In this document: piece after piece, positions 2,773 through 42,470 of the stretch
Numbering within the stretch: the first letter of the stretch is position 1
Layout of the letters: each line of letters opens with the position of its first letter
From: Candidatus Aquidulcis sp.
GTDB taxonomy: Bacteria > Chloroflexota > Limnocylindria > Limnocylindrales > Limnocylindraceae
Assembly (NCBI GenBank): GCA_009919005.1
Contig: RGCW01000004.1
Location: forward strand, 1-50,984
Direction of reading: 5' to 3'
DNA length: 50,984 nucleotides
Program-made: the position numbers and the translations under genes
The notes under the pieces: model-generated
Database searches by the model: none
Told to the model about the DNA's origin: nothing
Seen by the model: only the letters and a program-made list of their open reading frames with translations

Positions 2773-5115
2773 GTGCACGTGGATCGTAGCGCCGCCCGAT
2801 TCGCCGCCGCACTCGCACCAGCCTCTCCAGCTGACCCTTCGTTTGCTGCAGGCAGTTTGACCGTCGACTTAACGGCCCAGAGCGCTGCGCTGGCACGTGC
2901 CAGCGTGCGATATCAGTACCGCACCCTCCTTCATGCGCGTGATGCCGTTGATGAGTGGGCGATCGCGACAGAACTGCGTCCACCAACGGTGCGGGCCTAC
3001 GAGGCTGCCACCGCCGCCCTTCTCGCCTCGGCCACACCAGCGCTTGAAGAGGGATGGCAGAGCACGTGTGCTGCGTGTGGGCAGTCCGTACGCGTCGCCG
3101 CCTGGCGATGGGAGGATCCTTTCGACGCGGATCGTGACCATGCCCAGCCAACGGCTCGTCGCGCCACCTGTGCCGCCTGTCGTGCCCTTGGGCGTCGTGG
3201 CGGCGACGCTGCCACGATCCCCTCTGGCGAGTCTGTTCGCGCGACCCCCTTGGAGCCAGAGGTGCGCGCTCAGGTGGAGGCTCGCTTTGCTGGAGCGACG
3301 GATGGTGCCGCCGAGCGTTGGAGCACCCGTCAGCTGCGCGCACTCCAGGCGATGAGTCGCGCACTGGAGGGTTCGACGGAGAGTGCCGTGATGCTCGCCG
3401 CACTCCGACTCACGCTGACCGAAGCGGCAGCAACCATGGCGCGACCGCAGCGATCAGGGCGCTCGTGGTGGGAGGTCGCCCCGTGGCAGGCGATGCTCGA
3501 AGCGATCGAAACCCGTCGACGAATCTATTTGACGGCGCAGTCGCTCCCTCCTCAGCTGACGATGAGCAGTGATCTCTCAGCGCTCTCGTACCCGGGAGCG
3601 GGCGCCATCCTCCTTCGCGGTGGTGCTTCATCACGCACTTCGCTTGCTTCGCTCATCGCTCGTACGCCGTCGGTAGCCGTTGCCTGCGTGCGGATCTGCG
3701 TTGGAGGGAGTTCGGAGGAGCGGATTGACCGCGCTGTTGCAGCACGCTGGGCCGGGGAGGTGAGTGAGGGTGACCCACTGCAGATCGCGCTGCAGTCCAA
3801 TGATGCCGCCACCATTGCCGCGGCGCTCGCACGGCTAATCGTGACCATGGATCCACTCATTCGACAGCGGCCACGACTGGTGATTGATCTTGATGATCAT
3901 CCAGAGCAGATCGCGGGCGTGTTGACCGCGGTGCGTCTCGCTGGTGCCGTTGGCGACGTTTCCCGTCGACGTGATGATGAGCGCCCCGGACTCACGATCT
4001 CCGTGCGCTTTGATGCGTCGCCCGAGCGCCCCTCGCGGACTTCAAGCCAGATTGCACTAATCAGCGATCTGGTTGTGGCCCATGGTGAGCCGGTGACGGC
4101 GCGACAACTGCTTCCCGCGTATGCGGCAGTGCGAGTTCGCGAAGCCCATGCCTCTGGTGAACTGCTTGATCCCGCAGCCTTTCTCGCTGACCTGCAGCGA
4201 TGTAGTGATATTCATGCGACGCTCCGCCCAACAGGATCATTTGATCAACTGATTGCGCTGGCGGAGGGTCGAATCTTCGTGGAGGCTCGCGCTGAGCGAG
4301 AGCGACTCGCCTCACCCGCCACGGATCGAGTCGATGCCGCCGTGTGGGCGCTCGTCGCCGATCTTGGGCGTGAAGATCGTGCCGACGAGGCGCTGGTCGC
4401 CCTCGATGCCGACCCGATCGGAGTCTCTTCCGAGATGCGATCTGCCTTGCTCGACGCCTACACCGTCGTCTCCGAAGAGGTGCGCACGCCGCGCGCATCG
4501 CAAGCTGATCTCGCCGACGAACGGCTGATGAATCTGGCGGGACTCCTTGAACTTGGGCCGCGCATGGGGCTCTATACCGCGGTCTCACCGTCGCTGGCCG
4601 ACCGTGTCGTTGCGGGCCGGTCGCTCGGAGCGCGCACCACCATTGACCCAATCGACGCATCGCCTCCATTGCGCACTCGCTCGGATCGAGGGGCCTTCGA
4701 TGCGGTTGATGTGATCCTGTATCGACGCGGTCGAGTCGTCTTGCTCTGCGAAGTGATTACGGGTCCACTCCCTCTTGGTGATCTCCTGCTCAACCAACAT
4801 GCGCGGATCGCGAGCGATCCTGAAGTTGTGCGCCTTCTTCTGCTCGCACCCGCGCTCGTTCCGCTGTTGCAAGCGCGCCTCGCAGCAGATGAGCGACTTG
4901 CCGCGGCGTGGGAGTCGGGAAATTGGCACCTGCTTGCCACTGATCGTATTGCGGCGTTGTCTCGCCTCCCGGCGCCGCGGCTCGCTGACCTAGAGGGTCA
5001 CCTTGGTGCTGAGCCACCACAGCGCCAGGCTGCGCAACTTGACCTCAGCTCGCTTGGTTGGGATGGTTCACAATCACGGCAGCATCAAGGGGGAGATCAT
5101 GAACCTACCGAATGA
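2773..5115 (+). CDS. Degenerate Zn-ribbon DNA-methyltransferase-like protein with C-terminal PD-(D/E)xK-like segment
   Basis: 780 aa with two CxxC motifs (TCAACG, TCAAC). No FxGxG or DPPY motif visible. C-terminal DVILY...LCEV. Family assignment is from remembered resemblance only. Confidence 0.5.
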   Translation: MHVDRSAARFAAALAPASPADPSFAAGSLTVDLTAQSAALARASVRYQYRTLLHARDAVDEWAIATELRPPTVRAYEAATAALLASATPALEEGWQSTCAACGQSVRVAAWRWEDPFDADRDHAQPTARRATCAACRALGRRGGDAATIPSGESVRATPLEPEVRAQVEARFAGATDGAAERWSTRQLRALQAMSRALEGSTESAVMLAALRLTLTEAAATMARPQRSGRSWWEVAPWQAMLEAIETRRRIYLTAQSLPPQLTMSSDLSALSYPGAGAILLRGGASSRTSLASLIARTPSVAVACVRICVGGSSEERIDRAVAARWAGEVSEGDPLQIALQSNDAATIAAALARLIVTMDPLIRQRPRLVIDLDDHPEQIAGVLTAVRLAGAVGDVSRRRDDERPGLTISVRFDASPERPSRTSSQIALISDLVVAHGEPVTARQLLPAYAAVRVREAHASGELLDPAAFLADLQRCSDIHATLRPTGSFDQLIALAEGRIFVEARAERERLASPATDRVDAAVWALVADLGREDRADEALVALDADPIGVSSEMRSALLDAYTVVSEEVRTPRASQADLADERLMNLAGLLELGPRMGLYTAVSPSLADRVVAGRSLGARTTIDPIDASPPLRTRSDRGAFDAVDVILYRRGRVVLLCEVITGPLPLGDLLLNQHARIASDPEVVRLLLLAPALVPLLQARLAADERLAAAWESGNWHLLATDRIAALSRLPAPRLADLEGHLGAEPPQRQAAQLDLSSLGWDGSQSRQHQGGDHEPTE

Positions 5116-11392: not shown

Positions 11393-12333
11393 ATGAGTAG
11401 TGAGCAGGTACGCGCCCGCACGCCTGATGTCGCTGACGACCACCTCGATCACGGCGGTGGCGCCGGATCCCCAGGGGCCGATGATGCCGCGGTCCGTTCC
11501 GTTGACCGCGCCGCCGCCCTCCTCGTCTGCCTCGCCGACGCCGACGGATCGGCATCAGTCACCGACCTCTCGCACTCCCTAGATCTTCACAAGTCCACGG
11601 TCAGCCGCCTCCTCTCCACCCTTGAGCGTCGCGGACTCGTGGAACAGGATCGCGAGAGCGGGCACTTCCGCCTCGGCGTCGGCATCATTCGCTTGGCCCA
11701 GTCCGCAGAACGGACGCTCGATCTGAGGACGATAGCCCTCCCCGAGATGGAGGCGCTCGCCAAGACGACCCATGAGACCGTGAGCCTTGAGGTCTTTGAT
11801 GGTGTCGGCGCGGCCGTGGCCATCTGTCAGATAGACGGACCAAACCTCACGCCAATGCCCGACATCACGGGTCGTCCGGTTGCGATGCACGCCATCGCCT
11901 CGGGGAAGGTGCTGCTCGCCTCACTCCCAGAGCGAACCGTCCTTGCGATTGCACGGCGTGGTCTGGTTCGCTACACGCCACGAACCATCACCGATCCGCG
12001 TGCCTTACTTGAAGAGCTCGCAACCATTCGAAAACGCGGTTACGCGGTGGCGATTGGCGAGTGGGACGAACGCATCACTGCAGCCGCGGTACCAATCTGT
12101 GACGCACGTGGCAGCGTGATCGCGACCGTCGTCGTGTGGGGAGCATCGGCGCGGGTCACCCCAGGGACACTGCCATCGCTGGTCACCGCGGCCCGTGATG
12201 CGGCGCAGCTGATCAGCACCAAGTTGGGCTGGAGCGGCGGTCAACGTCGTGCTGGCATCGTGCCGCACCTAAAAGATGATGATGCCGACGAGCAAGAGCA
12301 CGAGGTGGCGGACGACGAAGAGGCCGCAGGTTA

Positions 12334-12334
<1 letters not shown>
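11393..12334 (+). CDS. IclR family transcriptional regulator
   Basis: HTH segment SVDRA...LHKSTVSRLLSTL; effector domain HAIASGKVLLA and ELATIRKRGYAV. Confidence 0.93.
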
Positions 12335-14304
<1,970 letters not shown>

Positions 14305-14309
14305 CGAGG

Positions 14310-14354
14310 ACTTTTCCACAACACGCCCAAATTGCTCGTGAATGGTGGAAAAGT
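14310..14354. repeat. 10-bp perfect inverted repeat with 25-nt spacer; left arm overlaps a DnaA-box match
   Basis: ACTTTTCCAC 14310-14319 / GTGGAAAAGT 14345-14354; TTTTCCACA at 14312-14320. Confidence 0.6.
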
Positions 14355-14390
14355 GCTGCGAGACTCAGCGATAGTTCGTTGATAAGTCCC

Positions 14391-14419
14391 TTCTCGTAGG
14401 GCGTGTGCGCAGCGATGCT
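14391..14419 (+). promoter_or_regulatory. Candidate promoter for the structured RNA
   Basis: TTCTCG (14391-14396), 17 nt, GATGCT (14414-14419), ending 7 nt before the RNA closing stem. Similar G-initial -10 boxes occur at 11361 and 16209. Confidence 0.4.
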
Positions 14420-14426
14420 TCTCGTA

Positions 14427-14681
14427 GCCCGAAGGGGCCAACGGTGACCCCGCCGACCGAGCAATCGGCCAGGCGGCACGGACTGTGGCGATGACGGGAT
14501 CGAGCCGGCAGGTAACTGACGGTGCTGGTGAATGACCACCAACGCGCGGGGCGACTCGCAGCGGCGGAGCGGAGGGTCACCTGGGAGCTCGGCTTTACGG
14601 CCAGAGCGACTCGATCCGATCTCACAGCGGAGGGGACTCGGCGTGTATGCGTCGCCCCCTCCATCGGATGGCCTCTCGGGC
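14427..14681 (+). ncRNA. Unassigned large structured ncRNA (multi-branched, pseudoknotted)
   Basis: Closing stem 14427-14440/14669-14681; GNRA loops GCAA, GTAA, GCGA; long helix 14483-14504/14610-14627; crossing 8-bp pairing GGTGACCC/GGGTCACC; lies between convergent genes. Confidence 0.7.
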
Positions 14682-14693
14682 GAACCCTTTTCA

Positions 14694-16202
14694 CTATGGA
14701 CTGGTGCTCTCTAGCACGCTGGATGATGCCTCGGGACTCGGCGATGGAGATTCAGTTGGCGAAGGCGAGGGCGATACAAGGGCCGGGAACGCGTTCGCGA
14801 TCGTGCTGCGAATCTTCGCGATCGTCGCTGGTGTCAGGTATGCGGGATACGCACTCGGTGCGAAGCGGTAGAGGCGCACAAGAGCGGTTGATGCTCGCGA
14901 GAAGAGATCGACAAGATTCGGCAGAGAACTTCGAGGCAGGTCGGTCCACACATACCCTTTTGCGGCTGAGGCGAGCCCTGGGGCGTTGAGAATGGTGGCA
15001 GCACCGAGTTGATCGCGTATAGCTAGTAGGAGCGCCTGTTGGCGTCGCATCCGTCCATAGTCTGAATCCTGATGCCGACTTCGGGCGTAGGCCAGCGCGA
15101 GACGACCATCAAAGTGATGTCTCCCAGTATCAATTCGAAGTTTGATTGAACCGAGTACTGGGTCGGGATAGTTCGCGTCAACAACAGACTCCGTCACATT
15201 CATATCAATGCCCCCCATCGCATCAACCACCTTGATCACCCCCCACAGGTCGGCGACGAGGACGGCATCGATCGGTCGTTGGGCCAACTCTGAGATCGTG
15301 GCGCGGACGGCGGCTATCCCGGAGACACTCCCATCTCCCGGCCAGAGCTGCGGATAGTAGAAGGTTGCATCGGTGTAGACCTCGTTGAGGAGCTTGGTGA
15401 AACAGCCGCAGGGGCTAGCGTTGCGTGCGGCACCCGGAGGGAGCGGCACGTTCACCATGTTGCGCGGAAAGCCGAACATTGCGACACGACCCGTTGCCAC
15501 ATCGACCTCAACGAGCAGCATGACGTCCATGCGTCGGCTCCAGCGATCGTTGCCAGCGTCGGATCCGAGGAGAAGCAGATCAAATTTTCCGTCATCGCCC
15601 CACGGGATCTCGCCGGGGCGTGTCCACGGCGTGGCGACGGTTAAGGGTGGCAGCGTCCCCGTCCCCGCTCGATTTGGCGTTGGTGTGCTCGGAGACTCTG
15701 CGGGGGAGGCTTCATCTGTGGGCGACACATCTGTGGGACCAGGGCTCGTCACCTGAGGTAGGGGACTCGGAGAAGCCTCAGAGAAGGTGCTGTTCAGTAG
15801 GTCATCGAATGCGGCCAGCGATCGTCCGATAGCGAGGTGAGGTCCAACGATGAGCAGGAGCGCCGCAGCAATGACCACGGCGCGGTCACGCACGGAGAGG
15901 CGCGTGCCACGTGCTGCATGCGCCGTTGCACCAAGTCGCCACACGGCAACGATGAGGTTGATGAGGCCGAGCGCGATCAAGGCCCCAGGCGTGACCATGA
16001 TGATGAGGAGCTGCCTGGTTCCACCGAACAAGGTCACGAGAACGAGGGCCGTGAGCAGTGCGAGCATCGGTGCCGCCCAAAAGAGAGCGATCCGACGGTT
16101 GCCGCGCAGCCAATGCCCGGCGCCTGGGGCCAGTACCGAGAGAAGCGCAGCGCGAACTGGCGAGGTCACACTGCGGCGGCGTGTTGGTCTGGCAGGCTTC
16201 AC
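14694..16202 (-). CDS. LCP (LytR-CpsA-Psr) family protein
   Basis: N-terminal TM segments, LLLGSD..RMD, FPRN, ALAYARSRHQDSDYGRMRRQQ; Ser/Pro-rich linker and tail. Confidence 0.9.
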   Translation of the reverse strand: MKPARPTRRRSVTSPVRAALLSVLAPGAGHWLRGNRRIALFWAAPMLALLTALVLVTLFGGTRQLLIIMVTPGALIALGLINLIVAVWRLGATAHAARGTRLSVRDRAVVIAAALLLIVGPHLAIGRSLAAFDDLLNSTFSEASPSPLPQVTSPGPTDVSPTDEASPAESPSTPTPNRAGTGTLPPLTVATPWTRPGEIPWGDDGKFDLLLLGSDAGNDRWSRRMDVMLLVEVDVATGRVAMFGFPRNMVNVPLPPGAARNASPCGCFTKLLNEVYTDATFYYPQLWPGDGSVSGIAAVRATISELAQRPIDAVLVADLWGVIKVVDAMGGIDMNVTESVVDANYPDPVLGSIKLRIDTGRHHFDGRLALAYARSRHQDSDYGRMRRQQALLLAIRDQLGAATILNAPGLASAAKGYVWTDLPRSSLPNLVDLFSRASTALVRLYRFAPSAYPAYLTPATIAKIRSTIANAFPALVSPSPSPTESPSPSPEASSSVLESTSP

Positions 16203-42394: not shown

Positions 42395-42470
42395 TGGGGT
42401 GGCCAGAGGGAATTGAACCCTCATCTGCGGCTCCACAAACCGCGGTCCTAACCATTGAACGATGGCCACC
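42395..42470 (-). tRNA. tRNA-His (GTG)
   Basis: G-1 then GTGGCCA/TGGCCAC acceptor stem, C73 and encoded CCA; anticodon arm GCGGT-TTGTGGA-GCCGC; T loop GGTTCAATTCC. Confidence 0.97.

Follow-up and report, generated by a model that had tools for sequence, protein, structure and literature searches.

Our comparative analysis of contig RGCW01000004.1 (assembly GCA_009919005.1, deposited as Candidatus Aquidulcis sp.), of which we studied positions 1 to 50,984 (hereafter the window), shows that the 389-nucleotide (nt) gap between the stop codon of acs and the end of a convergent gene of the LytR_cpsA_psr (LCP) type holds a gene for a structured non-coding RNA (ncRNA), 256 nt long and read on the + strand (14426-14681). 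This RNA is the most constrained feature of its locus, and it is the only copy in its genome of a previously undescribed RNA family of the Limnocylindrales, which we define here as the 'clamp' family and which is absent from Rfam 15. An earlier note on this DNA, made from its letters alone, had proposed an independently transcribed, structured + strand RNA in a gap of about 390 bp between converging genes; the sequence, the coordinates and the arrangement are as it described, and the proposal itself is borne out by the changing gene neighbours, the strand signal of the G-U pairs and the high depth in RNA libraries that we describe below. On balance we lean towards the reading that this is a stand-alone gene for a stable, abundant and structured ncRNA of the clamp family, whose transcription is linked to DnaA and which acts in trans through a macromolecular partner.

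Conservation, fold and expression of the RNA

The host is a member of Ca. Limnocylindrus in the Chloroflexota (NCBI lineage Ca. Limnocylindria; Limnocylindrales; Limnocylindraceae), the only genus of its family, so that the actinobacterial framing of the earlier note does not apply, which leaves its observation unaffected. A DNA search recovered the RNA, at 76-94% identity, from 37 of 41 further species of the genus (the four genomes that gave no match are 78-90% complete), and in the genome of the window itself (1.1 Mb, 96 contigs, about 83% complete) it is a single copy. R1, a covariance model derived from 38 sequences, scores the orthologues at 224-299 bits, and on the window it returns 14426-14681 with 280.5 bits, in agreement with an abrupt onset of conservation at 14426 and a drop after 14681. 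Among the 21 closer species, those whose RNA is at least 91% identical, identity reaches 91-94.5% in the RNA, against 82-84.5% in the final 600 nt of acs, 72-78% at the LCP end and about 70-81% in the upstream spacer (partial alignments). About half of all columns of the RNA alignment are invariant. When named genome records were searched with two G-rich junction motifs and a covariance-model filter, at least 16 of the 80 loci listed were true matches; a metagenome scan yielded 51 real loci out of 56, all from close relatives, and added no distant members.

The RNA is closed by P1, in which the 5' arm GCCCGAAGGGGCC (14427-14439) pairs with the 3' arm GGCCTCTCGGGC (14670-14681), with 10 of 13 pairs in a rigid register and 12 if one A is bulged. 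Inside it lie P2 (CGGTG, 14442-14446, with CATCG, 14662-14666; both strands invariant in 60 of 60 sequences), the P3 hairpin (14450-14476), the P4 domain (14483-14627), whose long helix 14483-14503/14611-14627 encloses the hairpins P5 (14505-22), P6 (14524-45), P7 (14546-59) and P8 (14587-607), and the P9 hairpin (14632-14659). All of the helices that had been listed from the single sequence (P1, 14450-76, the long helix, the inner hairpins and 14629-62) are present in the RNAalifold consensus of both 23 and 38 orthologues, the 23-sequence alignment recovering the proposed architecture with 14 compensatory pairs, and the three GNRA loops stand where they had been placed, with GCAA (14461-64), GTAA (14512-15) and GCGA (14551-54) capping P3, P5 and P7, respectively. 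Most species have a fourth GNRA loop on P9 (GNAA; GUAU in the window), and in a few species CUUG-type loops replace GNRA, as in P3, where two species have CUUG or CUCG. The P6 loop is near-invariant, and the purine-rich junction strands, in which CGGAG occurs three times, are invariant or nearly so. The single-stranded P7/P8 junction GGAGCGGAGGG (14566-14576) has 10 of its 11 columns invariant in 38 species, with G in 37 of 38 at the fourth column, and the (near-)invariant purine-rich strand CGGAGGGGA starts at 14628, as does the conserved stretch CGGAGGGGACT (14628-14638), whose first four bases form the P4/P9 junction and whose GGGG (14632-35) is the 5' strand of P9.

Folded as a single sequence, the RNA is only moderately better than its shuffles (z of -2.9 for the + and -3.3 for the - strand), and the structural case therefore rests on the relatives. 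Across 84 sequences (38 genomes and 46 full-length metagenome copies, giving 60 distinct rows), the model structure has 99.6% of its cells paired versus 28-44% when the partners are slid by 1-3 columns, 12 double-sided pairs versus 1-6, and a covariation score of 0.146 versus at most 0.054. A refined structure, in which the long helix keeps at its base the register first proposed and P8 is re-registered, gave a similar picture in the same set, with 97.2% of cells paired versus 31-44% when the 3' partners are slid, 14 double-sided pairs versus 1-4 and a score of 0.158 versus at most 0.05. The compensatory pairs are spread over P3 (1), P4 (3; 2 at its base and 1 in its upper part), P5 (3), P6 (1), P7 (3), P8 (2) and P9 (1), and within the genus P1 varies by G-C to G-U only and P2 (CGGUG/CAUCG) never varies. 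Covariation of all columns against all is swamped by phylogeny, the genus having only about five clades.

An 8-bp pseudoknot between 14443-50 and 14574-81, also proposed there, stands in part: as a perfect helix it is confined to this genome, and its first five pairs are kept across species. This core (14443-14447 with 14577-14581, TCACC) is paired in 99.3% of cells among the 60 distinct sequences, three changes in its 3' strand keeping the pairing through G-U and one change breaking a pair in 2 sequences, whereas pair 6 fails in 49 and pair 7 in 24 of the 60; the test covered these seven pairs, the 5' base of the eighth being part of P3 as well. The core shares its GGUG segment with P2, which makes the two pairings mutually exclusive, and both fit all of the data; in a homologue from a sister genus a P2 counterpart lies at the same place and covaries. 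The GGUGA segment could alternate between P2 and the pseudoknot core. A further lead is a putative long-range pair between alignment columns 94 (the bulged base of P5) and 157 (immediately 3' to the pseudoknot strand), which is A-U in 35, U-A in 23 and C-G in 2 sequences and thus Watson-Crick in 60 of 60, and which came from a post-hoc scan of many column pairs over few clades.

The orientation is fixed by the G-U pairs, as the helices hold 468 G-U cells versus 22 A-C cells and are 98.7% paired when read on the + strand and 89.1% on the - strand, in line with the + orientation assigned from the GNRA loops. The element is non-coding: the largest + strand open reading frame (ORF) starting inside it (14532-14714, 60 aa) is interrupted by stops in 26 of 38 species, its ATG is missing in 18 of 38, and the RNA alignment carries 1-nt indels. 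Turning to expression, we found part of the RNA stretch in 20 river metatranscriptome runs, and contigs of four RNA libraries, compared over 13900-15200, span 14450-14675 at a summed word depth of about 2,400-167,000 per bin, so that RNA of this locus is present at very high depth, in contigs that are strandless. In one run (X3), where the organism itself occurs, exact-match contigs have a depth of 3,843-4,548 inside the RNA and of 5.6 and 3 in the flanking genes (13966-14154 and 15093-15200), a contrast that points to a very abundant RNA, because carried-over DNA would cover the flanks too. The stretches left uncovered in most runs (14208-14427 and 14692-15087) do not amount to silence, since these are contigs and the runs were chosen for containing the RNA.

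The neighbours of the RNA change across the genus. Upstream it is acs in some species, and in more distant ones moaA stands between acs and the RNA; downstream it is LCP, thyX, a beta-helix protein or a DMFA2_C protein, in every case on the opposite strand. The hallmark of a cis-acting leader, a co-directional gene directly downstream, is thus absent across the genus and present for many members of the sister family. Changing neighbours, all of them convergent on the downstream side, indicate that the RNA is neither a 3' untranslated region (UTR) of acs nor a leader, and at this locus the earlier argument against a 5'-UTR riboswitch holds. In the window, acs (acetyl-CoA synthetase; Pfam ACAS_N, AMP-binding and AMP-binding_C) occupies 12334-14304 on the + strand with its stop codon at 14302-14304, and the LCP gene runs towards it on the - strand (14694-16202). 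Further upstream, the gene of an IclR-type regulator (11393-12334) shares base 12334 with the start of the acs ORF, which suggests an iclR-acs operon.

The RNA has no counterpart among catalogued families. A cmscan of the whole window against 4227 Rfam 15 families returned only a tRNA gene (42398-42469, - strand, 59.1 bits), the sole match at gathering score, and a permissive scan (E up to 10) of 14250-14800 gave two chance-level matches only; ten loci of the sister family likewise had no match in Rfam. The models of RNase P RNA, signal recognition particle (SRP) RNA and transfer-messenger RNA (tmRNA) (RF00010, RF00169 and RF00023) do not match in the RNA region, and the corresponding genes lie elsewhere, those of RNase P and SRP on other contigs in 5 of 5 genomes each and a full-length tmRNA in 4 of 5, the incomplete genome of the window giving sub-threshold tmRNA matches only and none with aragorn. 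The RNA is therefore none of these three, as had been proposed from its missing motifs. Among the papers listed in our literature searches, no title or abstract describes such an RNA in Limnocylindria; supplements might hold unnamed candidates.

The clamp family and its promoters

Although the body of the RNA is restricted to one genus, its ends and its promoter are not. R1 gave five weak matches in the sister family, four of them junk; the fifth (G032, 17 bits) is a homologue in genus g5 that is 276 nt long, has its first 17 nt in common with the window RNA and carries a matching 3' arm. The g5 RNA is present in 14 of 14 genomes of its genus at 73-92% identity and has a well-supported fold of its own, 20 of its 88 predicted pairs being compensatory. 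Genus g22 has an RNA of 73 nt that shares these ends; it is flanked by moaA and thyX, as is the RNA in the more distant Limnocylindrus species, and the upstream regions of the Limnocylindrus (g1), g5 and g22 RNAs align. A search pattern made up of the upstream GATAA and the 5' arm matches 15 of 16 genomes of the window's own family, at G000:C24:14381-14438 in the genome of the window, and 117 of 137 genomes of the sister family, compared with 0/92, 1/153 and 0/2 for the three remaining families of this class (the first two tallies include genomes flagged unpublished, on which no positive claim depends); the reversed pattern, our control, matched once in 401 genomes. Of 180 genomes from the rest of the phylum, 5 match the pattern, none of them with promoter hallmarks by eye. 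A looser 5'-arm pattern with 2 mismatches was dropped, as its matches were as frequent as in the control, and 80 family-pattern matches in viral contigs are about what chance predicts by our own estimate, with the 3' arm in 0 of 80.

In all, the family comprises more than 250 loci in more than 130 genomes. Genomes of the sister family hold 1-4 copies, some of them in tandem, and we observed arrays of 2-3 units, 260-530 nt apart and each with its own box and promoter, at G401:C3:1570367-1571311, G399:C80:18335-19010 and G107:C7:10771-11446. The unifying feature is the clamp helix, formed by the family 5' arm GCCCGRAGRGGCC, which begins 1 nt after the inferred transcription start, and a complementary 3' arm. 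At least 11 of its 13 pairs form in 59 of 62 distinct units, the exceptions being two Limnocylindrus units with 10 pairs in rigid register (bulged A) and one unit cut by the end of its locus, and its sixth pair is A-U in 33, G-C in 15, G-U in 9 and A-C in 2 units. Between the arms lies an interior or 'cargo' of 47-250 nt, giving units of 73-86 nt (30), 112-186 nt (12) and 255-276 nt (17), that cannot be aligned between genera except for short purine-rich motifs seen by eye, e.g. GCGGAGG(G)UCA. The window RNA has each of the defining features of the family: its 5' arm at 14427-14439, the 3' arm followed by a U-rich tail, and upstream a box of the NGTGGATAA type 4-5 nt before the -35, further boxes beyond it and a -10 placed 6-7 nt before the start. 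The pyrimidine/U-rich tail of the window, GAACCCTTTTCA (14682-14693, + strand), is directly followed at 14694 by the LCP stop codon, and it is weaker than the GTTTTCGTGT-like tails of sister-family members. We noted two further features in the sister family. Two g5 members (275 nt and 82 nt) flank a GT2 glycosyltransferase gene about 1.3 kb apart (L276:1501-2925; L277-L288), and in several sister-family genera a conserved element of about 40 nt with the core GATCGGCATCCCGGTGTCGATACTCC (L295:~1625-1665; also L296, L328, L345, L351, L353 and L354) follows the short family RNAs at a distance of 90-130 nt and closely precedes a PNP_UDP_1 (purine nucleoside phosphorylase) gene; it may be an undescribed cis-regulatory leader, and L295 gave no gathering-score match to Rfam.

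The promoter of the window RNA (14391-14419, + strand) has a -35-like TTCTCG (14391-96), a 17-nt spacer and a -10-like GATGCT (14414-19) that ends 6 nt before the RNA start and 7 nt before P1, as proposed from the sequence, and whose A2 and T6 are invariant in 23 species. Sister-family promoters have the same spacing and read TTGACC-N17-TAnnnT. Upstream of the promoter are three 9-mers: box 1 TTTTCCACA (14312-14320, - strand, inverted, about -114, 8 of 9 positions to the consensus), box 2 GGTGGAAAA (14344-14352, + strand, about -82, SGTGGANAA across the genus, footprinted at a fixed position) and the proximal box 3 CGTTGATAA (14377-14385, + strand, about -49, CGTKGATAA), 5 nt upstream of the -35. 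All three hold fixed positions amid variable sequence in 32 of the 33 distinct upstream regions compared (box 1 is unmarked in L022). Elsewhere in the genus and in the sister family box 3 is replaced by CGTGGATAA or GGTGGATAA; among distinct upstream regions of Limnocylindrus we counted CGTTGATAA in 20, GGTGGATAA in 9 and CGTGGATAA in 7, and in the sister family the proximal box is NGTGGATAA in 57 of 57 units, usually with 1-3 GTGGAC-type boxes 40-70 nt further up. Within 151 nt upstream of the proximal box, extra boxes (at least 7/9) come to 72 for the 36 regions of Limnocylindrus and to 57 for the 57 of the sister family, versus 20 for 186 control windows taken from these loci.

In E. coli the DnaA box has the consensus TTATCCACA or TTWTNCACA, and among high-GC Gram-positive bacteria it reads TTGTCCACA; the 9-mers upstream of the RNA agree with this consensus and are candidate DnaA boxes. 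The exact combination GTGGATAA-N5-TTGAC occurs 6 times in 5 sister-family genomes and its reversed control 0 times; two of these matches are at family RNAs, and around the other four the box is clustered, with an inverted copy in three cases and tandem copies in one, each cluster preceding an ORF that is Pfam-confirmed as GidB/RsmG in one case, alike by eye in two and unclear in one. The rsmG gene is classically found near the replication origin. We infer from the match to the consensus and from the clustering near rsmG that DnaA, or a protein of the same specificity, probably controls these RNA genes. About 100-330 nt into the four cluster loci (L446-L449, from four sister-family genomes), 2-4 DnaA-box-like 9-mers and a TTGAC promoter lie upstream of rsmG/gidB candidates (Pfam: L448), in both orientations in three loci and in tandem in L447, followed by a conserved GC-rich leader GCGAGGGGNCCGGGGARACCCGG, and this region may be origin-proximal. 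A scan of the genome of the window for strong box clusters (at least 8/9), which might have marked its replication origin, found none.

The only other promoter of this design in that genome drives hspR-lon, an arrangement conserved in two further species of the genus. There (C8:16950-17010; L324:1451-1510) a perfect TGTGGATAA box lies 4 nt upstream of TTGACA, ahead of the MerR-type hspR and lon. A heat-shock regulon had been one reading of the shared box; we replaced it when the box clusters before rsmG in the sister family pointed to DnaA. An operator of two direct repeats for a response regulator was likewise considered and gained no support from a genome scan.

Candidate function and rival explanations

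The working model that we favour builds on the plan common to the genes of the family. A cluster of DnaA-box-like 9-mers, with its last box abutting the -35, precedes a sigma-70-type promoter, from which transcription begins 1 nt ahead of the conserved 5' arm GCCCGRAGGGGCC; the complementary 3' arm closes the RNA in the 13-bp clamp helix, ahead of a U-rich tail, around a variable cargo that in Limnocylindrus is the conserved multi-helix fold with P3-P9, in addition to P1 and P2, and 3-4 GNRA loops. Control by DnaA would tie synthesis of the RNA to replication or growth state, and the mature RNA would bind a protein or another macromolecule in trans through its invariant junctions and loops, with no cis-regulation of a downstream gene by the window RNA. 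The guess of a binding partner comes from the tertiary-looking fold and the (near-)invariant single-stranded strands, which are typical of protein-binding and machine RNAs and not of seed-type small RNAs (sRNAs). We can also picture a bolder version, which we regard as rather doubtful at present, namely a new RNA system in which DnaA directly drives clamped RNAs with freely evolving cargo, and of which the genome-streamlined, globally abundant Limnocylindrus would keep one hyper-abundant 256-nt RNA that couples replication or growth to a core process as a new ribonucleoprotein (RNP) or RNA machine. Such an RNA may switch between the two conserved GGUGA pairings.

Several observations weigh against our preferred model. 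The species are related and the counts drawn from them are not independent, and within the genus no double-sided change occurs in P1 or P2, leaving genus covariation silent on both. As to expression, the 20 runs correspond to 18 study codes and perhaps to a single campaign, the contigs carry no ends and no true level as well as no strand, and RNA segments identical among many strains inflate the summed depth relative to strain-specific flanks. Simple consensus scans of 14250-14800 called neither a promoter nor a terminator, the -35 of the window promoter is weak, and box 3 agrees with the box consensus at only 7 of 9 positions in the 20 nearest species; binding of DnaA to the boxes is a prediction from that consensus and from their clustering near rsmG. 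Between genera no homology of the cargo is detectable, the Limnocylindrus model scoring 17 bits on the g5 RNA, so that a shared function of the family is unproven. The searches for partner proteins were empty in 5 genomes each for CsrA (PF02599; control positive), Hfq and Ro60/TROVE (PF05731; control, Deinococcus, positive), the genome of the window, about 83% complete, being one of the five. Finally, in a crude test of GC content at third codon positions (GC3), a co-directional gene lies downstream of 32 of 44 assessable sister-family units, which there would fit a leader or attenuator.

For the family taken together, that last observation introduces the chief competing explanation: a cis-acting leader or attenuator in which clamp and U-rich tail form a regulated terminator and read-through controls the next gene. 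The co-directional genes of the GC3 test lie 60-170 nt downstream (7 further units face an opposite gene, 5 are unclear and 12 more had a short flank), they include genes of a PNP_UDP_1 phosphorylase and a GT2 glycosyltransferase, and in all members a GC-rich helix precedes a terminal U-rich tail. However, 14 of the 32 same-strand cases are orthologues within one genus, tandem units each have their own promoter, and a 13-bp GC-rich clamp around unrelated cargoes of 47-250 nt is hard to fit to one sensing mechanism; since every downstream neighbour seen in Limnocylindrus is on the opposite strand, the explanation does not apply to the window RNA, and overall we hold it to be distinctly unlikely. 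A regulatory sRNA that base-pairs through exposed loops and junctions (the GGAGG strands and the AAKGAC loop of P6) we regard as unlikely, if a little less so. It would account for the own promoter and terminator-like end, for the (near-)invariant single-stranded stretches and for paralogues sharing a promoter, as in known sRNA regulons, but conservation extends over nearly all 256 nt and the helices covary, as one would sooner expect of tertiary-folded or RNP RNAs, and Hfq was missing from the 5 genomes searched.

The ornate fold with its 3-4 GNRA loops and (near-)invariant junction nucleotides could also be read as a ribozyme or a trans-acting ligand sensor, for which the mutually exclusive GGUGA pairings could supply a conformational switch and with which the post-hoc 94-157 pair (Watson-Crick in 60/60, three pair types) would also agree; against this, the RNA is unlike any ribozyme or riboswitch family in Rfam, no conserved gene context hints at a ligand and the cargo is wholly different between genera, and we consider the idea improbable. 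We find it more improbable still that the RNA is a 6S/Ms1-like regulator that binds RNA polymerase, the analogy drawn in the earlier note. High abundance, a stand-alone gene and paired ends would agree with such a role, and the niche looks open, although this is weak evidence from an insensitive model: the 6S model (RF00013) matched in 0 of 5 genomes and in 0 of 151 genomes of the class, and in the control it matched only 4-5 of 14 reference genomes. Against the analogy stand the fold, which is a multi-branched junction and not a rod with a central open-promoter-like bubble, the missing Rfam match at E up to 10, and a family of 73-276 nt with up to 4 copies per genome. Next to no credence is due to a selfish repeat resembling a miniature inverted-repeat transposable element (MITE), with terminal inverted repeats and no function as RNA, despite the 13-nt inverted terminal arms and the several, sometimes tandem, copies in the sister family: the genome of the window has one copy, the locus is syntenic across genera, promoter and boxes keep a fixed distance, the helices change in a compensatory manner, the RNA is more conserved than the adjacent coding DNA and deep in RNA libraries, and none of the 80 viral-contig pattern matches carries the 3' arm.

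Significance and comparison with known RNAs

Limnocylindrus is a planktonic freshwater lineage with small genomes of about 1.1-1.4 Mb, and the metatranscriptomes containing the RNA are riverine. An RNA under greater constraint than the coding DNA of acs and LCP and present at high depth shows the pattern of core RNAs such as those of RNase P, SRP and tmRNA, yet it has no match in Rfam. To this the family adds a new architecture of box cluster, promoter, terminal clamp and free cargo, together with a candidate and testable link between DnaA and an ncRNA. The compact, GNRA-rich and covariation-backed fold is moreover a target for structural biology, and in microbial ecology data an unannotated transcript may dominate the non-rRNA reads of Limnocylindrus.

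Among known systems, 6S RNA (RF00013), which binds the sigma-70 holoenzyme and serves as a template for product RNA, and Ms1 are similarly abundant, stand-alone RNAs of a few hundred nt with paired 5' and 3' ends, and the window RNA differs from them in its lack of a model match, its multi-branched fold and its membership in a multi-copy family of 73-276 nt. The CsrB/RsmZ sponges share with it repeated GGA motifs in single-stranded stretches (here CGGAG three times) and high abundance; however, CsrA was found in 0 of 5 genomes and the motifs sit in the junctions of a compact fold and not in a string of hairpin loops. Y RNAs, of 70-220 nt, are closed by a conserved stem of their two ends around a variable interior and have paralogues that are sometimes in tandem, and in these respects they resemble the clamp family; on the side of difference, Ro60/TROVE, usually encoded next to Y RNAs, was found in none of the 5 genomes searched, and there is no Rfam match. 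CcnA of Caulobacter is reported to be an ncRNA linked to the master cell-cycle regulators (PMC8959179). A comparable link, here with DnaA as the candidate suggested by the boxes, would be the point of likeness, and phylum, sequence and size are different, as may be the mechanism, which in CcnA is pairing with mRNA.

The closest company in kind is kept by the large orphan RNAs raiA, OLE, ROOL and GOLLD, which have a large conserved and tertiary-looking fold, GNRA loops, lineage restriction and an orphan function in common with the window RNA; raiA is reported to be a conserved structured RNA (PMC11706538). The window RNA differs from all four in having no Rfam match and in belonging to a family of much narrower range, confined among the genomes searched to one order. 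We know of no member of that group that combines a clamp, a variable cargo and a shared promoter. The window RNA takes its place among the orphan structured ncRNAs of bacteria, although the architecture of its family and the putative link to DnaA may turn out to be of a categorically new kind.

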